Source: Escherichia phage ukendt. From it: 64,000 bases of DNA. Shown in pieces: positions 2,180 through 26,163 of this stretch (the first letter of the stretch is position 1; every line of letters starts with the position of its first letter). Location: the sequence record NC_052661.1; one strand, written 5' to 3'. The notes below the pieces were generated by a model. It was not told the DNA's origin, did no database searches, and worked only from the letters and a program-made list of their open reading frames with translations. The position numbers and the translations under genes are program-made.

Positions 2180-2379
2180 TACTCCTCCTCCTCCTCATTG
2201 AAGTCAATATCTGCAAGGAGTTCGAATTTACGGAAGTTACGACAACCTTCATAAATATAACAATCACGACAAACTGCTAGAACACTTGGGGGATATATAC
2301 CTCCCATCGGTGCGAATCGTTTTTCGTCATCATAACGGACACCAATGTCTTCATCAATTATATAGATACGGATTCTCAT
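2179..2379 (-). CDS. hypothetical protein
   Basis: 66 aa ORF ending in EEEEE. Confidence 0.45.
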   Translation of the reverse strand: MRIRIYIIDEDIGVRYDDEKRFAPMGGIYPPSVLAVCRDCYIYEGCRNFRKFELLADIDFNEEEEE

Positions 2380-3488
2380 TTACCAAGCCCTCGTTTCACA
2401 GCAGCTACCATCCCGTCTTCCAGAGATTGAACTTCATTAATATAATCAACACGAGCAGCACGGGCTTCCGTATTGATGCGGTTAGTTTCTTCCAACATCT
2501 TAACCAAGTTTTCCTGATCGTGACGCAGAGTTTCAATATCCAACACTTGACGGTTAGCCAGTGCTGCTGCTTCGATCTGATTCTGTGTGGCAAGATCGCT
2601 ACCCAGTTTAATTGCCAGGTTAAATTCATCAAGAACGTTATTCTGCGTCTCTGCTGCTTTCATTTGACGTAAGCTCTCGATATACATTGAGAAGTTAGCA
2701 GAGTAAGCAGGAATAACATTATTTACTATGTTACGCGCAGATCGCATTAAGCTTGCAGAAACTTTTTGCATACCTTGTACACGCGGTCCCATTTGGACAC
2801 ACAGTAGGCGCAATGCTTTTAAATCTGCAATACGAATCTCCAGAAGATCCAAAGTATCCCGGATCACTTGTCGCTGTTCTACTGCATCTTCTGGAAGAGC
2901 AGCCAAAGCTTGTTCTTCTTTTTCATAGGTTGCTGTTAGAAGCTGCATATCTCGGTTCAAACTTGCAGCATATTGTCCAATAGCTTGATGTAGCTTTTCA
3001 AGATATACCAAGGAATCTTCTTCTTTGCGAATATCCATTTGAAGGTTCTTTACCAACTCTTCAATACGGTTATTAACATTATCAAACTCCCCGAACAGGT
3101 CTTCTTTCATACCCATAACTTTTTTAATGAGTTTAGTAATACCTTTGCTTTGTTTAATAGAGTTTGGATCAAGTTGTTTTGCCTGTTTAATCAAAGCTGT
3201 GAGTCGTTCACTCATCTGATCGCCTTGATTACTACGTTGATGTTTTAATACCTCGGCATTCAAGGAACGCAAGGTTGTTCCTGCCTCTGCCCCAATCTCT
3301 TCGATCTCTTGTCGGGTCATAGAAGGCAAAACTGGAACTTCTTGCGGTGCTGCTGGTGCGTAAACAGGACTGGCATCTAACACGCTTGGAGCGAATACAG
3401 ATTTACTTGCATCTGTTGTTGCAGCAAATACGCTCATTTCAGGCTTCTTCTGACCACCAGTAGCTGCTTTTAAAAATGGACTTGTCAT
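2376..3488 (-). CDS. TelA-like (toxic anion resistance family) coiled-coil protein
   Basis: 370 aa, long heptad-rich helical regions, Ala/Pro-rich N-terminus; family call from overall resemblance only. Confidence 0.4.
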   Translation of the reverse strand: MTSPFLKAATGGQKKPEMSVFAATTDASKSVFAPSVLDASPVYAPAAPQEVPVLPSMTRQEIEEIGAEAGTTLRSLNAEVLKHQRSNQGDQMSERLTALIKQAKQLDPNSIKQSKGITKLIKKVMGMKEDLFGEFDNVNNRIEELVKNLQMDIRKEEDSLVYLEKLHQAIGQYAASLNRDMQLLTATYEKEEQALAALPEDAVEQRQVIRDTLDLLEIRIADLKALRLLCVQMGPRVQGMQKVSASLMRSARNIVNNVIPAYSANFSMYIESLRQMKAAETQNNVLDEFNLAIKLGSDLATQNQIEAAALANRQVLDIETLRHDQENLVKMLEETNRINTEARAARVDYINEVQSLEDGMVAAVKRGLGK

Positions 3489-4075
3489 TCTTCATTCTCC
3501 TCTTCTGCATCTCTTATATATGGTGAAACACCGTACTCTTTAGCTACTTTAACCCAATCGTCCCATTTATACAACCATAATTTTCCTTCGGTCCCTTCTT
3601 TATCTGATTTCAACCACATATTAGGTTGCTTACCTGGGTACATGCGATTAGGTTTACGATTATAACCTCTAACACATCTTGTCGCAAACCTATCTACCAG
3701 AACAAGAACATATTTATACTCGTGGTTCAACGGCTCTTTGGAAGTGGCTTTAGGATTAGCCCCTAATTCTGCTGCCAGTTTTTGCCAATGAGCACCGTGC
3801 CTACTAAACTTACCCATACAACCATCAATAGCATGAGCAATTTCGTGCTTCATTGTATCCACGATCATATCTCTTGTGGAGTTCTTATGCAAGTGCCAAT
3901 TTACAACAACAATTTTATCTCGGTAGTTGCACCAACCGAAAGAGTTATTCACTTTGTTTCTAACACAAGCTTTATATCCTGCTTCACGTAACATGTTGTA
4001 GTAAACAGGAAAATCTTCTTTTATTTCCTGCATCACTTCCCACCACAAGAGTTGCAAGTCTCTCTCGGTATGCAT
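3485..4075 (-). CDS. SprT-like zinc metallopeptidase
   Basis: 196 aa; HEIAH zinc-binding motif. Confidence 0.55.
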   Translation of the reverse strand: MHTERDLQLLWWEVMQEIKEDFPVYYNMLREAGYKACVRNKVNNSFGWCNYRDKIVVVNWHLHKNSTRDMIVDTMKHEIAHAIDGCMGKFSRHGAHWQKLAAELGANPKATSKEPLNHEYKYVLVLVDRFATRCVRGYNRKPNRMYPGKQPNMWLKSDKEGTEGKLWLYKWDDWVKVAKEYGVSPYIRDAEEENEE

Positions 4076-4686: not shown

Positions 4687-5124
4687 TTAACGTCGCTTGC
4701 TACGAGATGAACTCTTTTTACTTAAAGGGCTATTGTAAGATTTACGAGTTGTATAGCTACTATTTGTTTTAAAAGTTTGTCTCGGATTTTCATAAGTTTT
4801 TATCTCTTGTTTAGGCTTACCATAAAAATTAGTTTTCGGTTTAGGTGTATTATAATGCTTATTAATAATCGTTCTGTTATCGTTATAATCCCCACTGTTA
4901 CGATTACTACCACCACTCATCATATGCCCTAACAACATACCTGTAGCAAACTCACCAACACCGCTACTACTAGAACCGCCACCATTGTTGATAATAGTTG
5001 TATCTCCGTCAGATCCTTGTTGAGCGTATTGTTGAGGAGGTTGTTGGTATTGTGCAGGATTTGTTTCATCCTCGCAAGCTGTTAAAAAGATACAACCAAT
5101 TAAAATCAGGGCTAGTTTTTTCAT
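4687..5124 (-). CDS. lipoprotein, Gly/Ser-rich
   Basis: Start placed at internal Met giving signal peptide MKKLALILIGCIFLTAC with lipobox; RBS GAGGAA upstream. Confidence 0.55.
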   Translation of the reverse strand: MKKLALILIGCIFLTACEDETNPAQYQQPPQQYAQQGSDGDTTIINNGGGSSSSGVGEFATGMLLGHMMSGGSNRNSGDYNDNRTIINKHYNTPKPKTNFYGKPKQEIKTYENPRQTFKTNSSYTTRKSYNSPLSKKSSSRSKRR

Positions 5125-5311
5125 ATTTGCTTTCCTCATTTTGACTATTAATACATCTGTGTTTGAAATCTCCAGAGAAGCAATAAAGTTGCTCTCCATC
5201 TCGGTATAAACTCACTTTACTGCCGTTGATTACGCTTGTCAATACAAAAATTACAACAAACAACCCTATTGCAAAACAAATATTTTCAAACACAATCAAC
5301 AAGTATTTCAT
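5066..5311 (-). CDS. hypothetical membrane protein
   Basis: 81 aa ORF with hydrophobic N-terminus; start overlaps upstream stop. Confidence 0.35.
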   Translation of the reverse strand: MKYLLIVFENICFAIGLFVVIFVLTSVINGSKVSLYRDGEQLYCFSGDFKHRCINSQNEESKYEKTSPDFNWLYLFNSLRG

Positions 5312-5658
5312 TTTAAAAATACCTCATCATCAGTTTCATTATCCCAGAAGAACAAATCCCAACCATTCGGATCATTCCATTTGGCTGCTGGAGAAGTCCA
5401 TATTTGTTCGATATCAATATTCAAAACTTCACCGTTTCGTTTTGAAACAGCTTTAGTTAATTCCCAACGAGATACAGGCTCTACTTCCCCTGAACCACTC
5501 CCACAACAAGCTACCACGTTAGGAGGCAAATTAATTGGATCTTTGGTCACGATCATAACGCTTACCCCAGGGTAAACTTTTGAAAGATAATCTAAAACGT
5601 AATCCACATCACCAGATAAATCCCAAACAAGTTCTTGAATTTCATCAAAATTATTCAT
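5308..5658 (-). CDS. hypothetical protein
   Basis: 116 aa ORF, RBS AGGAGA upstream. Confidence 0.5.
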   Translation of the reverse strand: MNNFDEIQELVWDLSGDVDYVLDYLSKVYPGVSVMIVTKDPINLPPNVVACCGSGSGEVEPVSRWELTKAVSKRNGEVLNIDIEQIWTSPAAKWNDPNGWDLFFWDNETDDEVFLK

Positions 5659-5669
5659 AAGTCTCTCCT

Positions 5670-5696
5670 ATAAAATAGCCTCCCGAAGGAGGCTCA
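5670..5696 (-). terminator. rho-independent terminator after terC
   Basis: AGCCTCC-cgaa-GGAGGCT hairpin followed by a U-rich tract on the minus strand. Confidence 0.5.
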
Positions 5697-5700
5697 TCTA

Positions 5701-6675
5701 TTAAACAGCAGCTTCTTCTTTTTCAGGGAAGATAAAGCTTGCAATAACACCAAGAGCTAATGTGCCTAGAACAATCATCAGACTTACGTTAGGGGAAATA
5801 TCATGCGGGAGGAATGACCACTTGGCATGAAGTGTTTCACCGAACGGGTGATACATAAGTTTAGCACCGACAAATACCAGAACCACAGCAACAGCTTTCT
5901 CTAAGTGAACCAGATATTTCACAGCTACACTTAACACAAAGAAAAGTGCACGTAAACCAAGAACAGCCATCAGCATTGCAGAATAAACTAGCAGAGGTTC
6001 TTGTGTCACACCAATAACAGCCGGAACTGAATCAAAAGAGAACACAATATCTGTAAGCTCAATAACAAACACACAAAGAAGAGCAGGAGTTGCATATTTA
6101 ATACCATTCTTAATGGTAATGAACTTTTCACCATCCAGTGCGTTGTGCACAGGCAGAACTTTACCTACTAAACGAACAGCCCAATGTTTAGAGTAATCAA
6201 TATCTTCTTCTTCGTCACCACCTTTGATAATAGCAACGGCAGACCAAGCTACAATCAGACCGAACAACACTTGGACCGACCAATGCAGGTTAAACAAAGC
6301 TGTCCCTGCTGCAACAAAAACACCTCGGAAGACAATGGCACCTGCAATACCCCAAAGTAAAATCTTATGTTGGAGATGTGTGCTCTTAATTCCAAAGCTT
6401 GCAAAAATTGCCATGAACACCATTAGGTTATCTACAGAAAGACTCTTTTCCAACACATATCCACTTAGGAAAAGTGCGGCAAACTCTTTACCATGCTCTA
6501 CCCAAATGAATGCGTAATATCCTAAAGCTAAAGCAATCCAAAAAACAGACCAAAGCAAAGCAGATTTAATTCCAATTTCTTTATTCTCTTTATGACCAAA
6601 GAAATCGATACCAATAGACAATGCCAAAATACCAACTAAAACAACTACATCAATAATTGGGAAACCGAGTTGCAT
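5701..6675 (-). CDS. terC: TerC-family integral membrane protein
   Basis: 324 aa multi-pass membrane protein with EKSLSVDN and ELTDIVFSFDSVPAV motifs typical of TerC. Confidence 0.7.
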   Translation of the reverse strand: MQLGFPIIDVVVLVGILALSIGIDFFGHKENKEIGIKSALLWSVFWIALALGYYAFIWVEHGKEFAALFLSGYVLEKSLSVDNLMVFMAIFASFGIKSTHLQHKILLWGIAGAIVFRGVFVAAGTALFNLHWSVQVLFGLIVAWSAVAIIKGGDEEEDIDYSKHWAVRLVGKVLPVHNALDGEKFITIKNGIKYATPALLCVFVIELTDIVFSFDSVPAVIGVTQEPLLVYSAMLMAVLGLRALFFVLSVAVKYLVHLEKAVAVVLVFVGAKLMYHPFGETLHAKWSFLPHDISPNVSLMIVLGTLALGVIASFIFPEKEEAAV

Positions 6676-6692
6676 TCTTTTCTCCTCTCTTT

Positions 6693-6751
6693 GCGGGGAA
6701 CTATTCCCCGCTTCATGTGATATATCTTACTCTTTTTAAGAACTATGTCAA
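6693..6751 (-). promoter_or_regulatory. cassette-type promoter + 5' hairpin driving terC
   Basis: On the minus strand: TTGACA, 16 nt, TAAGAT, then ACATGAAGCGGGGAATAGTTCCCCGC hairpin, RBS, ATG at 6675. Confidence 0.55.
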
Positions 6752-6754
6752 CAC

Positions 6755-6976
6755 TTATTTTGTTGAATGAGAGGAAAAGATTCCTCGTAATACCGCCAGA
6801 ATAAACGAAACACAAACCACGGTCCAGAAGGTTACTGGGACAGTGATATCTGCATGACCCATAACTTCAGCAACATAGTTGTAAGCCAGCAACAGTAACC
6901 AAGCTGGAATCAAACTAAGCATAAAAGCAATAACAAAAAAGCTTACCACTGCAACAATACCTGCAAAAACACCCAT
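6755..6976 (-). CDS. small membrane protein
   Basis: 73 aa, two hydrophobic segments. Confidence 0.5.
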   Translation of the reverse strand: MGVFAGIVAVVSFFVIAFMLSLIPAWLLLLAYNYVAEVMGHADITVPVTFWTVVCVSFILAVLRGIFSSHSTK

Positions 6977-6988
6977 ACTAATCTCCTC

Positions 6989-7462
6989 TTAAAGTTTATA
7001 AATAGTCACATCGTGACCTGTTTTTACTAAAGTTTCTTCAATCATCACTTGGATGATAGCCCAATTACCTCCAGCATATCCAGCGCCAATCATAGGTAAG
7101 CCGATCTTACATTTTTGGTCACGGAGAAGCAAATCATTAGCCATAGCTATTAGTGCATCGTAAAGTGCATCATAGTCCAACTGACGACCTTTAGCATTGT
7201 ATCCGTAACGGTATTGTCCGTATAGATTATATACCAAAGGGTCTGATTGTTCGTCTGGCAACCCTAAACTAAAAGAACCTAACTTACTTTGATCACCAGC
7301 CATTGTGTCTAAATCTGCCGCATATGCATAAGGGAATGCTCGTTTAATTTGCGGAGCAATTCCTGCTCCCATATTACACATACAATTGCAACAATGAGCA
7401 ATAACAGTTACTTCTCCTGCTTTAGCGGCATCAATAAGATTACCTGTTTTCATTTTAAGCAT
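6989..7462 (-). CDS. macro-domain protein (ADP-ribose binding/hydrolase)
   Basis: 157 aa; VIAHCCNCMCNMGAGIA and IGLPMIGAGYAGG match the two macro-domain Gly-rich loops. Confidence 0.6.
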   Translation of the reverse strand: MLKMKTGNLIDAAKAGEVTVIAHCCNCMCNMGAGIAPQIKRAFPYAYAADLDTMAGDQSKLGSFSLGLPDEQSDPLVYNLYGQYRYGYNAKGRQLDYDALYDALIAMANDLLLRDQKCKIGLPMIGAGYAGGNWAIIQVMIEETLVKTGHDVTIYKL

Positions 7463-7476
7463 TTTTTAGCTCCTTA

Positions 7477-8304
7477 TTACAGAATATGTTGTTTTGTGTA
7501 ACGATCCAAGAATTCAAAGTTTTCAGCATACTTTGAAATTCGGTTGTAACCTTCTCCCAAACATCCAAAGAAAAGTTGCTCTACATAGTAGTGTGGCAAT
7601 TGGCTAAGAATGATTTTGAAGTCTTCGTGATTTTGGCCCATAAGATACTTAATAGGACGAACAAGGCACTGTGCATCACGTTCTTCATTAATCATTTTAA
7701 CAAACGCTTCTGGTGTATTGATGTAGTTAAAATTCAGTTTAGCTTCAGTATCTGCTTGATTACCTTCATATTTTGCAAAATACAAGAAGTAAACATCATT
7801 TTTAACTTGATTTTCATCAAGAATCTCAATCAGTTTGTCTTCATGAGTTCCGGTGATATTTACATCATCAATGAACACAAGCTTCTTATCACCCCAGAAT
7901 TCTTTGTTGCAGTAGAATGTATCCCCATCAATAAGTTTCTTACGACTAGCTTTATCCAAGAAACCATAATCGTTGATATAGCTAACTTTACGATGAATAA
8001 TATCCAGTTCTGCTGAACGACCTTGATCATATTGTGCTTGCAACATATTAAAGTAATTAATAAAATGATCTGTCATCATTGTTGCAGCATTATGCACATG
8101 GTTATAAGGAGAAGGGATGATAACAAATTGTTCCCCAATATGTTTCATTGCCACTTGAGCAAAAAACTGAAGTGCCAATTCTTTACCCATACGACGCGCA
8201 GCCTGGTTACTACCAAATTTCAATTTTGAATAGTCTTTGATATCAAAAGTAGCAGTTTCCAGGTCATCAAATTTATTTGCAAAAATTTGAGTTTGATTAC
8301 GCAT
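7477..8304 (-). CDS. type I phosphoribosyltransferase-fold protein
   Basis: 275 aa; PRPP-binding loop KLVFIDDVNITGT. Confidence 0.5.
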   Translation of the reverse strand: MRNQTQIFANKFDDLETATFDIKDYSKLKFGSNQAARRMGKELALQFFAQVAMKHIGEQFVIIPSPYNHVHNAATMMTDHFINYFNMLQAQYDQGRSAELDIIHRKVSYINDYGFLDKASRKKLIDGDTFYCNKEFWGDKKLVFIDDVNITGTHEDKLIEILDENQVKNDVYFLYFAKYEGNQADTEAKLNFNYINTPEAFVKMINEERDAQCLVRPIKYLMGQNHEDFKIILSQLPHYYVEQLFFGCLGEGYNRISKYAENFEFLDRYTKQHIL

Positions 8305-8953
8305 TTACAATTTCTCCTCTTTTAAGTTTCTCTAGTAAGTCGTTAGGGTTCTTAATATGACAGAAGTTAAATCCTAAGTCAACACATTTTCCATCATATT
8401 CTTCACTATCGCCTACGTGCAATACTTCGTGCCCTAACAGAGGGACCGGAGAATACGTGAGCGTGCGAGCAAAGAATCGCGGATCTGGTTTACAAAGTAA
8501 AGCTTCATCCGAGAAATGGGTGAACTCAAAACAATTCCAACTATCAAACTTACAAGCACGACGCAGGATATCCCCTGATATGAAGTTGGTATTGCTCTTA
8601 ATACTCAAATCATAACGCCCCGAAAGATACAGCAAGTACATCGGCAGATCCACGGCTACGTGTGGTGGAAACTTAAGGAACCACTGTTCACACTCGAAAC
8701 GAAGCTTTGCAGACTTCCAAGGCGTTATCCCAAGTTCAGAACCAAGTCTTTCCCAAGCGTATGCTGCACACTCGGCTTTGCCTTGAAGTGCTGCATTATC
8801 CAGTTCCTTTTTGATCTTCTTATAAGCTGCTCTTGCTTCCACTTCCGTAATATCTCCATATTTTGCGATAGTCCAGGCTCGCATGTCTGCGTAATTGGAG
8901 TTTGCTGTGATCAGTGTGTTCCATACATCAAAAGAGATATGTTTAATAGTCAT
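8297..8953 (-). CDS. HAD-superfamily hydrolase
   Basis: 218 aa; N-terminal FDVWNTL (DxD-type) and C-terminal HVGDS motifs. Confidence 0.5.
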   Translation of the reverse strand: MTIKHISFDVWNTLITANSNYADMRAWTIAKYGDITEVEARAAYKKIKKELDNAALQGKAECAAYAWERLGSELGITPWKSAKLRFECEQWFLKFPPHVAVDLPMYLLYLSGRYDLSIKSNTNFISGDILRRACKFDSWNCFEFTHFSDEALLCKPDPRFFARTLTYSPVPLLGHEVLHVGDSEEYDGKCVDLGFNFCHIKNPNDLLEKLKRGEIVNA

Positions 8954-8954
8954 A

Positions 8955-9560
8955 TTAAGCCCACCATGCGTCTAAGTTAAGATTACTGTCTACCACAACT
9001 TGTTCTATGTGGTAGCCTTTTATCTGTATCCCACTGTTCAAGAGCATATCATATGCTTCATTGAAACGCAACTTGTCTTCTGCGGAATATAAGCGAGCAT
9101 TATAAAATCGGTAATCAATTTCTTCAGCATTAGAAGAAATACGGAAGAAGTTTGTTTCTACTTCGGGATCACTTGCTGAAGTCTTAATGTGAACTTCTCC
9201 ATAATTTTCTTTGCTTAGATCCATGAAAAGAACACAGGCAACATGTTTAAACATTCGTTCCAGTTTGTAACGAACAACATTGAAACCTGCATTCTCAAGT
9301 TTTTCTACACACTGCAACATTAAAGTAGTGTCGAGATCGCTTTGATACTTTGTTAACATACGATCACGTTGAGACTTTGTATCCCGATGTAAATCAATTG
9401 TTGTGCATTTGGCACCAATAATCTTAGCTGCTTTCATCAACTCTTCAGAACTAACGTTAGATAAAGTAAGATGAAAATGGGCTTTCCACACTTTTTTAGC
9501 AGGGACACCAAAAGATTTATCCCCACTATTCGGCATGTTGACTACTACACTATGTTGCAT
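8955..9560 (-). CDS. hypothetical protein
   Basis: 201 aa ORF. Confidence 0.5.
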   Translation of the reverse strand: MQHSVVVNMPNSGDKSFGVPAKKVWKAHFHLTLSNVSSEELMKAAKIIGAKCTTIDLHRDTKSQRDRMLTKYQSDLDTTLMLQCVEKLENAGFNVVRYKLERMFKHVACVLFMDLSKENYGEVHIKTSASDPEVETNFFRISSNAEEIDYRFYNARLYSAEDKLRFNEAYDMLLNSGIQIKGYHIEQVVVDSNLNLDAWWA

Positions 9561-9575
9561 TACTTATCTCCTCAC

Positions 9576-9800
9576 TTAAAATGGAAGTCTTTGAAGTTCA
9601 TCTCCTCCGATATCAAGTAATTTAGCAACATCTCGATCAGAAAGCAACTCTTTTCTTTGTAAAATATCCACAAGGGTTGCAAGAATGTCCTTAACGTCCC
9701 GATCACTGTTCTTCAAAAGTTCTCCTGCCGTCCCTACCCTATCTCCTACAGCAAAATATGTAACCATAAAACCTCCTACGCTAATCTGATTGCCAACCAC
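9576..9800 (-). CDS. hypothetical protein
   Basis: 74 aa ORF overlapping nrdG 3' end by 20 nt. Confidence 0.3.
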   Translation of the reverse strand: MVGNQISVGGFMVTYFAVGDRVGTAGELLKNSDRDVKDILATLVDILQRKELLSDRDVAKLLDIGGDELQRLPF

Positions 9801-10251
9801 TCGCCGTTTTTGTCCATAATCTTTGATTATCTGACCCTCTGAAAGGTTTTGTGGTTGGATTGTTTATTTCATACTTTCCGTCTACAATAATGTCAACAAG
9901 ATTTTTAATATACAAAGGCACTTCCTCAAAAGTATATCCTGTATACACCATTATATCTTTGCTTGACCCATAAACGTCTCTAACCTTTTCTATAAGGTTT
10001 TTAACATTGTAAATATTCTGCGGATCTAATGGTTCTCCTCCTAAAATTGTTAAACCTTTTACAAACGGTCTTGACAAATCTTTTAAAACTTGCTCTACAT
10101 TTTCGTTAGTGAACGGTTTCCCATAAGAATAAGACCAGGCTTTCTGGTTAAAACAGCCACGACAACCGTGGCTACAACCACTAACCCAGAGGGAGCACCT
10201 AACTCCCTCACCATTAATAAGATCTACAGGTTCATATCCTGCAAAATTCAA
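9781..10251 (-). CDS. nrdG: anaerobic ribonucleotide reductase activating protein (radical SAM)
   Basis: 156 aa; CSHGCRGC cysteine cluster; immediately downstream of nrdD with overlapping stop/start. Confidence 0.75.
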   Translation of the reverse strand: MNFAGYEPVDLINGEGVRCSLWVSGCSHGCRGCFNQKAWSYSYGKPFTNENVEQVLKDLSRPFVKGLTILGGEPLDPQNIYNVKNLIEKVRDVYGSSKDIMVYTGYTFEEVPLYIKNLVDIIVDGKYEINNPTTKPFRGSDNQRLWTKTASGWQSD

Positions 10252-24954: not shown

Positions 24955-26163
24955 ATGAGTAAAGCTAAAAGTTGGGAAGAATATAAAGCAGAATGCGAGA
25001 TCATAGCTCTCTCTAAAGGATATAAAATTTTAGGCCATAAAGAATGGAAAGGGTGTGAGACTAAACTCCTGATAGAATGTCCTGTGCACGGTGTATGGGA
25101 TACTTGTAAAATATCTAACTTTAAAAGTGGGAAGTCTTGCCCTTCTTGTGGTGAATTAACAAAAAGGGAGAAGAGAACGAAGAGCAGAGAGGACCAAGAG
25201 AAAGAGTGTGAAGAAGAAGCGTTAAAAAGAGGTTGGCGCTTCTTGGGTATCTACGGAGAATGGCTGAAAGCTAAAAAGACACGAGTAATCTTACGTTGTG
25301 ATAGGGGTCACGAGTTTAACACATCTACCATAGACAACTTTAAGAATAATAAACAAGGTTGTCCAGTTTGTCGTTTAGAGGATATAGGTAAACACAATAA
25401 GCTTTCAGACGATCAGCACATACAAGATTTCATGAGTACGGGTGTGTTTCCCGAAGGCACTACCTTCACTAATACAGGGGAAAAAGCTGGGAGGAGCGAA
25501 ATACTTTGGAGTGTATTTTGCCCTATCTGTGCTATAGACGAGTTTTCCAAAGCTGGGGTAGGAACGGGATATTTTATCGGTAGAGGTAGTTCATTAAAAC
25601 AGGGTATGCGCCCTTGTCGTTGTTCTGCCAGTTACAAATATTCTGAAGAAGAGATGACATTTAGAGCAAAAAGTGACGTAGAACGTAGAGGGTACGTGTG
25701 GTTGGGGTGGATCGGGAAAGCTTCTATACTTGGGGATTTTGAATATGGTTGCAAGGATCATGGGAAACATGTGTGTAGTGCTAACAATTGGTTAAATAAG
25801 GGGTGTGGTTGCCCTGGTTGTGCAGGTATGAATCAACAACAAGCCTACATTAATTATATTTACGATGAGCAAGATATTATCTGTGCACTGAAGTTTGGTA
25901 TTGCTAATAATAGTAATCGCCGTATCAAAGAACAAAATAGTCGTAATGTGTTTACTATGAAACAGAGCCAAGTGTGGCACTTCCCTACTGTGAAGCAATG
26001 CAAAGATGCAGAAAAGCGTTGTAAGCGTGTCCTTCACACGGAAGCAGTGAGCAAATATTCTATGCCAGATGGCTACACAGAGACAGTGGAGTTATCTTGC
26101 ATGGCATCAATACAAAATATTTATAAACTTTATGGTGGAACATTACAGGAGGAAACATGTTAG
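24955..26163 (+). CDS. Cys-rich repeat protein with four zinc-ribbon-like modules
   Basis: 402 aa; four repeats of G(Y/W)xxLG...CxxGHxF...GCPxC pattern. Confidence 0.5.
   Translation: MSKAKSWEEYKAECEIIALSKGYKILGHKEWKGCETKLLIECPVHGVWDTCKISNFKSGKSCPSCGELTKREKRTKSREDQEKECEEEALKRGWRFLGIYGEWLKAKKTRVILRCDRGHEFNTSTIDNFKNNKQGCPVCRLEDIGKHNKLSDDQHIQDFMSTGVFPEGTTFTNTGEKAGRSEILWSVFCPICAIDEFSKAGVGTGYFIGRGSSLKQGMRPCRCSASYKYSEEEMTFRAKSDVERRGYVWLGWIGKASILGDFEYGCKDHGKHVCSANNWLNKGCGCPGCAGMNQQQAYINYIYDEQDIICALKFGIANNSNRRIKEQNSRNVFTMKQSQVWHFPTVKQCKDAEKRCKRVLHTEAVSKYSMPDGYTETVELSCMASIQNIYKLYGGTLQEETC

Follow-up and report, generated by a model that had tools for sequence, protein, structure and literature searches.

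The window analysed here, a stretch of 64,000 nucleotides (nt) from Escherichia phage ukendt (sequence record NC_052661.1), derives from a Phapecoctavirus, i.e. a phAPEC8-like E. coli myovirus of the subfamily Stephanstirmvirinae, and carries on its minus strand an open reading frame (ORF) for a stand-alone macro-domain protein, which is the subject of this report. The bounds of the ORF, which starts with ATG and encodes 157 amino acids (aa) followed by a stop codon, were confirmed exactly (Table 1). Its counterpart in phAPEC8, gp050, carries the annotation "phosphatase", and the surrounding segment (positions 5000-10000) matched 68 phage records across at least 80% of its length with 90-99% identity. 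The macro gene belongs to a co-directional string that runs, in order, through nrdD, nrdG, a small ORF and the genes for a 201-aa protein, a HAD-family hydrolase, a type I phosphoribosyltransferase (PRTase_3), the macro protein and a 73-aa membrane protein, and then, beyond a promoter-like site, terC. The HAD gene overlaps the start of the PRTase_3 gene by 8 nt, and the gap between the PRTase_3 and macro genes is 14 nt. Two terminator-like hairpins, at 12157-12137 before nrdD and at 5694-5677 after terC, bracket the string and were the only such hairpins on the minus strand there, and phAPEC8 has an annotated host-type promoter at the position equivalent to 6724..6751; these are pattern matches only, and the hairpin and promoter scan, taken overall, showed no enrichment relative to shuffled sequence.

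A sequence-only reading of this DNA had recognized the protein by two glycine-rich loops diagnostic of macro domains. Both loops were indeed found, one as N30-M-G-A-G-I-A36 (GAGIA at residues 32-36) and the other as I125-G-A-G-Y-A-G-G-N-W134 (GAGYAGG at residues 126-132), and their key glycines were conserved throughout 35 homologues of at least 46% identity, in which H23, N26, C27, G34-I-A36, Q83, G126, G128, G132 and W134 were invariant. The score of the Pfam Macro model (PF01661) was marginal, at 23.2 bits just above the gathering cut-off of 22, and this was offset by the strength of all the other lines of evidence. The protein matched PHROG_335 with E = 8e-55, and its sequence matches in the PDB were SCO6735 (5E3B, 8.7e-13), BT1257, TARG1, the DarG proteins of Taq and Mtb, and Poa1p, which sharpened to values between 1e-21 and 1e-9 when a profile of the 35-sequence family was employed. 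An AlphaFold2 model reached a mean predicted local distance difference test (pLDDT) score of 94.2 and a predicted template modelling (pTM) score of 0.90. When this model was searched with Foldseek, the leading matches were TARG1 (E = 7e-12, template modelling (TM) score 0.79-0.87), BT1257, DarG, Poa1p and SCO6735, and the top 50 PDB entries, with TM scores of up to 0.87, were all macro domains with the sole exception of one designed protein. Structure prediction, which the earlier reading had named as a check, hence places the protein inside the macro fold, and the product of the ORF is a macro domain, with a three-layer alpha/beta/alpha architecture in the model.

The active site was most similar to that of SCO6735 and BT1257 (2FG1/2AFC), the best PDB sequence matches (up to 1e-21 with the family profile). 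Aligned by HMMER, Q83 of the window protein corresponded to Lys84 of TARG1 and to Q85 of SCO6735, N26 corresponded to N27 of SCO6735, and A130 stood at the position of TARG1 Asp125, as is likewise the case in SCO6735 and BT1257. The window protein shares with these two a single-domain organization, a Gln in place of the catalytic Lys of TARG1 and DarG, the Asn equivalent to Asn27, and the loop motif G-x-G-L-A-G-G-x-W, and it can be classed from these alignments as a Gln-type member of the ALC1/TARG1-like macro domains. SCO6735 strips thymidine-linked ADP-ribose off DNA and rescues cells from DarT; its Q85A and N27S mutants lost the activity on thymidine-ADP-ribosylated DNA, N27 being the residue that holds Q85. 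The mechanism is water-mediated and differs from that of the TARG1/DarG lysine, and protein substrates are also acted on (PMC9411070). The two enzymes are, however, cellular rather than phage proteins and only about 25% identical to the window protein, in which Val25 of SCO6735 is replaced by Cys24 (a contact made via the backbone) and the DNA-binding lysines K34 and K89 are not obviously conserved.

DarG, the antitoxin of DarTG2, was also considered. The macro fold is common to both proteins (Foldseek E = 2.5e-10 to Taq DarG), and the window protein likely carries out the same reaction as DarG and the Lys-type PhiKZ gp104, also named AdfM, namely the release of ADP-ribose from thymidine in single-stranded DNA; in vitro, PhiKZ gp104 clears DNA of the ADP-ribose that DarT2 attaches (PMC13309987). 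The best PADLOC and NCBIfam matches of the window protein covered the macro half of DarG only, i.e. positions 1-144 of 329 in the PADLOC model and positions 2-147 of 338 in NF048014, the latter at 34.2 bits against a curated cut-off of 250. In contrast to DarG, which has a catalytic Lys (K80; K78 in PhiKZ AdfM), a domain at its C-terminus that binds DarT and a darT gene alongside, the window protein has Gln83 and is 157 rather than about 330-340 aa long, and no darT was found beside its gene, the flanks of which are the PRTase_3 and 73-aa membrane protein genes. An identification as DarG was rejected on these grounds, namely the missing catalytic Lys, second domain and toxin neighbour and the sub-cut-off score.

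Homologues of the macro protein were detected by tblastn in 2,937 of 50,697 phage records, among them tk.4 of T4-like phages, and the phi92 orthologue gp185 has already been annotated as "Tk.4-like". Two members of this family have been characterized. In a HIDEN-SEQ screen, tk.4 was the one gene of T4 that became necessary when the E. coli host expressed DarTG2, and a clean knockout confirmed the DarTG2 sensitivity, after which the product was named AdfM (bioRxiv 10.1101/2025.11.20.689424). In the Vibrio phage Gary, the macro protein Adpp, encoded between Adps and Namat, is a phosphatase of ADP-ribose-1''-phosphate (ADPR-1''-phosphate), whose conversion to ADP-ribose was shown by liquid chromatography-mass spectrometry; Adpp lets the NARP1 NAD+-rebuilding pathway beat the aRES defence, and the inactivation of any one of Adpp, Adps and Namat ends the anti-aRES activity (bioRxiv 10.64898/2026.01.28.702374). 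Rocket24 gp171, which is 98.7% identical to Gary Adpp and lies at the same place between Adps and Namat, showed 41% identity to the window protein over 161 aa (108 bits, E = 9e-31), which corresponds to full length, and Tk.4, represented by the tk.4-position gene of a Tequatrovirus, showed 37% identity over 124 aa (72 bits, E = 6e-18). The motifs H-x-x-N-C, M-G-x-G-[IV]-A, N-L-Y-x-Q and G-x-G-x-x-x-G-x-W were common to all three. By these sequence criteria, a single Gln-type phage macro family holds both AdfM and Adpp, which its motifs do not tell apart, a mildly new observation. A division of AdfM from Adpp by catalytic residues or by a tree was tried and abandoned, the motifs being identical and the tree unbootstrapped.

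Like the window protein, T4 Tk.4 is a stand-alone macro protein of about 155 aa that has this motif set and comes from a virulent myovirus of E. coli; both bear the PHROG label "phosphatase" in their RefSeq annotation, and each of the two phages also has a NADAR protein. On the other hand, Tk.4 was the most divergent member sampled, and its gene sits between vs and tk, while the window gene is located inside a Ter cluster. Gary Adpp shares the family and active-site signature and is the closest characterized relative by sequence, but it is flanked by Adps and Namat, both of which are needed against aRES and neither of which is present in the window phage.

Among the functions considered, we favour one in which the macro protein strips DarT2-added ADP-ribose from phage DNA, to which we would assign about an even chance by analogy with its characterized homologues. 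In such a mechanism, host DarT2 would ADP-ribosylate thymidines of single-stranded phage DNA, and the macro protein would bind the ADP-ribose and cut the bond at its 1'' carbon, whereby the thymidine would be freed and phage replication restored. The protein would act as an "orphan antitoxin", equipped with the part of DarG that is the enzyme but not with the part that binds DarT. Catalysis would presumably be of the SCO6735 type: Asn26 would hold Gln83, which would orient the distal ribose, and the reaction itself would be carried out by a water molecule instead of a catalytic lysine. ADPR-1''-phosphate may be dephosphorylated by this active site as well, and the enzyme may well catalyse more than one of the reactions considered here. 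A countermeasure against DarT-type toxins had already been put forward in the sequence-only reading, and this idea emerged as the best supported one, given that the T4 homologue Tk.4 is needed on DarTG2-expressing cells and that SCO6735 rescues cells from DarT. The protein thus appears to be of a known kind, with an earlier functional guess now backed by experiments on homologues. With this assignment, a gene described as "phosphatase" or "hypothetical" in dozens of E. coli and Klebsiella phages from the phAPEC8 and phi92 groups, which are therapeutic candidates, would acquire a likely counter-defence role; the assignment also predicts that these phages resist DarTG2 and, via their NADAR protein, perhaps DarTG1 as well.

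Several observations weigh against this assignment. Its experimental basis consists of homologues, none of them from a Stephanstirmvirinae phage, and enzymatic removal by Tk.4 is described by its own authors merely as something that "seems likely" (bioRxiv 10.1101/2025.11.20.689424). AdfM and Adpp were not separable by their active-site signature, and the window protein was nearer to the Adpp type (41%, 108 bits) and to the NARP1-linked REC_23 (47%) than to Tk.4 (72 bits). In a neighbour-joining tree, which contained one Tk.4 sequence only and no bootstrap and is indicative only, the window protein grouped with the Stephanstirmvirinae and Vequintavirinae orthologues, and this group was sister to the NARP1-associated clade with Tk.4 as a basal long branch. 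Moreover, when the genes within 6 kb of the macro gene were counted in the 80 nearest IMG/VR loci, Namat/Nampt-like or Adps/Prs-like genes were present in 36. These features would suit an Adpp-like function, in which ADPR-1''-phosphate, formed by NAD+ phosphorolysis through aRES or as a product of Tpt1/KptA-type RNA repair, is dephosphorylated to ADP-ribose and thereby detoxified or recycled, and the occurrence of Poa1p among the fold matches and of a Vequintavirinae orthologue one to two genes from RNA ligase 2 is also in line with it. The "NAD-derived signals" raised earlier as a possible target thus have a real counterpart, the relative of the window protein at 41% identity being nearly the same as Gary Adpp. 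We nevertheless consider this function rather unlikely in the window phage. The published Adpp depends on both Adps and Namat, and no credible homologue of Adps, Namat or Nampt was found by tblastn (E <= 1) in the window and positions 1-134,217 of phAPEC8, which together make up the genome, the only alignments being short chance matches with E values of 0.07-0.9. An assignment to NARP1-AP was rejected for want of a NARP1 partner, and since the NARP1 genes are missing, an Adpp role would have no downstream consumer. In addition, neither Tpt1/KptA nor an RNA ligase is annotated in phAPEC8, and ADPR-1''-phosphate phosphatase activity is widespread among macro domains in vitro and need not be the selected function. 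While the sequence and the neighbourhoods of its relatives lean to Adpp, the gene content of the window phage leans the other way; because the phage lacks NARP1 genes but has a NADAR protein, the removal of DarT2-added ADP-ribose was ranked first and the Adpp-like function second. Homology annotation alone cannot tell the AdfM role from the Adpp role, and some members of the family may fulfil both.

SIR2 products are classical macro-domain substrates, and a SIR2-family protein is encoded in the window. The macro protein might then serve in housekeeping, removing or degrading what the phage SIR2, or ADP-ribosyl transfer of another kind, produces, such as O-acyl-ADP-ribose or ADP-ribosylated protein or RNA, including the marks set by CmdTAC and similar host systems. 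In 24 of the 80 viral loci, a SIR2 gene and the macro gene were no more than 6 kb apart, islands with NAMPT, NADAR, macro, HAD, SIR2 and Prs genes exist, the top fold match TARG1 deacylates O-acetyl-ADP-ribose and removes ADP-ribose from proteins, and protein substrates are known for SCO6735 (PMC9411070). However, the SIR2 gene of the window lies some 49 kb from the macro gene with no local linkage, the Lys/Asp dyad used by TARG1 for protein de-ADP-ribosylation is absent, and no Gln-type phage member of the family is known to act on such substrates; this role seems improbable. Still less credible to us is the proposal of the sequence-only reading that the macro protein forms a small pathway with its PRTase and HAD neighbours, although the neighbours themselves were confirmed as PRTase_3 and a HAD-family hydrolase. 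The macro enzyme, recruited into the Ter module in Stephanstirmvirinae, would act with the other two on a shared ADP-ribose, nucleotide or NAD-derived metabolite, either in non-canonical NAD+/ADP-ribose salvage with the type I PRTase in place of the NARP enzymes or in making or breaking the "nucleoside-like" signal of the Ter system; if this were true, the adjacency of macro, PRTase_3 and HAD genes would denote a new pathway instead of an insertion. Their tight co-directional packing with no terminator in between and the retention of the arrangement in both Phapecoctavirus and Justusliebigvirus are as such a pathway would have it, and in other lineages genes of the macro family stand near those for PRTase-fold NAD enzymes and for HAD proteins of another family (HAD_SAK_2, 18 of the 80 loci), while the unrelated Pseudomonas phage REC also sets a macro gene between NAD genes and TelA-vWA-TerC. 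Tight packing is, however, normal in phage genomes, and the HAD-PRTase_3 pair occurred without a macro gene in all 23 bacterial loci, of which the one in Mucilaginibacter shows it inside a Ter cluster, and in four other phage lineages. Conversely, of the phage records bearing the macro gene, more than 94% lack the pair (2,937 versus 155), the pair stood near it in only 5 of the 80 IMG/VR loci, and the pair is missing, by loss or from the outset, from the close relatives L016 and L020-L026, which keep the macro gene together with TelA and a TerC-family gene.

The pair itself proved to be a coherent unit. PRTase_3 and HAD genes were detected in exactly the same 155 phage records and adjoined each other in every row examined, residues D146, D147, T151 and G152 of PRTase_3 were invariant, and the HAD gene was located immediately upstream of the PRTase gene in at least 20 of the 23 bacterial loci, with no macro gene within 8 kb of the pair in any of them. 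In the phages of Xanthomonas, Rhizobium, Brevundimonas and Caulobacter, the pair was intact but had no gene for a macro protein, TerC or TelA next to it; in XaC1, a macro gene lies farther off, at about 7.5 kb. According to the account of Anantharaman, Iyer & Aravind (2012) summarized in PMC7824862, the Ter stress-response/defence system includes a PRTase and HAD module for a "nucleoside-like metabolite". The layout of the Mucilaginibacter locus L114, TerD-TerD-HAD-PRTase-TerD-TerD-TelA-x-TerC, was matched by the HAD-PRTase_3 pair, TerC and TelA of the window together with a TerD gene just beyond the window start (gp066 of phAPEC8, L001:2873-3475; gp172 of phi92). Because the pair sits in bacterial Ter clusters and occurs without the macro gene, the PRTase_3 and HAD genes were assigned to the Ter module, PRTase_3 being a Ter-system biosynthetic enzyme and HAD its obligate partner, with neither tied to the macro protein. 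The region is a fairly complete phage-borne Ter system consisting of TelA, a SprT-like protein, TerC, HAD-PRTase_3 and TerD, and phi92 has the same set. In Phapecoctavirus and Justusliebigvirus, the macro gene is located inside this cluster. Since no macro gene accompanies the module in the bacterial loci, and the linkage of macro, PRTase_3 and HAD genes was confined to one phage subfamily across the phage database, the 80 IMG/VR loci and the 23 bacterial loci, the macro gene of Stephanstirmvirinae appears to be an insertion into the Ter cluster and not a regular component of the module. The macro gene is thereby separated from the pair, which instead marks a phage-borne Ter system. A further candidate for the pair, NARP3, was rejected, NARP3 consisting of a PnuC-like transporter and a NadR-like enzyme.

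Table 1. Positions in the window of the macro gene, its signals and the other genes discussed in the text
Feature	Position	Strand	Evidence and remarks
TelA, toxic anion resistance protein	2376..3488	-	PF05816, 3e-33; phrog_5890, 1.5e-139
SprT-like metallopeptidase	3485..4075	-	part of the phage Ter region
Terminator-like hairpin just after terC	5677..5694	-	pattern match only
TerC/Alx-family membrane protein	5701..6675	-	PF03741, 3e-40; TIGR03718, 3.8e-95, above cut-off
Sigma-70-like promoter match (TTGACA, 16-nt spacer, TAAGAT)	6724..6751	-	between the 73-aa gene and terC; consensus match only
73-aa hydrophobic protein	6755..6976	-	phrog_16065; directly downstream of macro in all Stephanstirmvirinae-type loci examined
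Stand-alone macro-domain protein	6989..7462	-	phAPEC8 gp050; PHROG_335 (Tk.4/AdfM/Adpp family); predicted ADP-ribose-1''-linked hydrolase
Ribosome-binding site AAGGAG	7470..7475	-	7 nt upstream of the macro ATG, directly past the PRTase stop codon; read from sequence
PRTase_3, ComF-like type I phosphoribosyltransferase, 275 aa	7477..8304	-	PF15610, 6e-42; phosphoribosyl pyrophosphate (PRPP) loop VFIDDVNITGT intact
HAD-family hydrolase, 218 aa	8297..8953	-	PHROG_14393 "hydrolase", 5e-117; NCBIfam HAD-IA subfamilies
201-aa protein	8955..9560	-	phrog_22504; fold class not assigned; upstream neighbour, distribution independent of the pair and of macro
NADAR-domain protein, 180 aa	26712..27254	+	PF08719, 3.4e-35; PADLOC PDC-M42C, 3.5e-35
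SIR2-family protein, 266 aa	56566..57366	-	NAD-consuming; PF02146, 1.4e-20; phAPEC8 gp197

The NADAR protein of the window (Table 1) was 35% identical to those encoded next to the macro gene in the metagenome loci L095 and L096, and NADAR genes were present near the macro gene in 17 of the 80 IMG/VR loci. NADAR proteins are the second known class of DNA ADP-ribosyl glycohydrolases. T4 has such a protein, AdfN, in addition to AdfM, and AdfN reverses DarTG1. By analogy, the window NADAR might complement the macro protein in the manner of AdfN and act on DarTG1, and with macro and NADAR the phage may possess erasers of DNA ADP-ribose of both types. A Vequintavirinae NADAR has been found to reverse DarTG1 (PMC11825919). 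The combination of macro, NADAR and SIR2 proteins with a Ter system in Stephanstirmvirinae is mildly new. Just upstream of the NADAR gene, at 24955..26163 on the plus strand, lies the gene of a 402-aa protein that contains three CapR-homology repeats (PF21817, 9.6e-23).

As regards the remaining genes of the string, the Pfam score of the HAD-family hydrolase (21.4 bits) was below the cut-off of 26.4, and a homologue of the 73-aa protein was found downstream of the macro gene in L015, L018, L019, L024 and L028.

Among the orthologues of the macro protein, some have an N-terminal extension of about 70-85 residues (phi92 gp185, L002:8851-9567; P0036-type proteins of about 222 aa), which is not part of the window protein and gave no Pfam match. 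The metagenome contigs L095 and L096, which encode P0074 and P0036, harbour an island arranged as NAMPT - NADAR - macro - HAD_SAK_2 - ... - SIR2 - Prs with a NUDIX gene nearby, and in both of them NADAR directly adjoins macro according to precomputed Pfam annotation. In the 98-kb genome of Pseudomonas phage REC (L008, Otagovirus), the macro family member lies between a NARP1-like Prs/NAPRT pair and TelA - vWA - TerC, which constitutes a second, independent macro-Ter neighbourhood.

With respect to the HAD-PRTase_3 pair, the rhizobial loci L099-L111 contain it without Ter genes, and in L101 (Ensifer aridi) the gene of a ClpP-family protease comes next. The phages recorded as Campylobacter phages B15, A110a and A150, Acinetobacter phage vB_AbaM_ABPW7 and Pseudomonas phage PsgM04F shared 79-98% identity with E. 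coli Stephanstirmvirinae over this region, and their host labels consequently deserve caution. A 100% identical PRTase gene was also found in L097, the contig JAEZZU010000022.1 of a metagenome-assembled genome (MAG) named "Proteobacteria bacterium", which is evidently phage DNA binned into the MAG.

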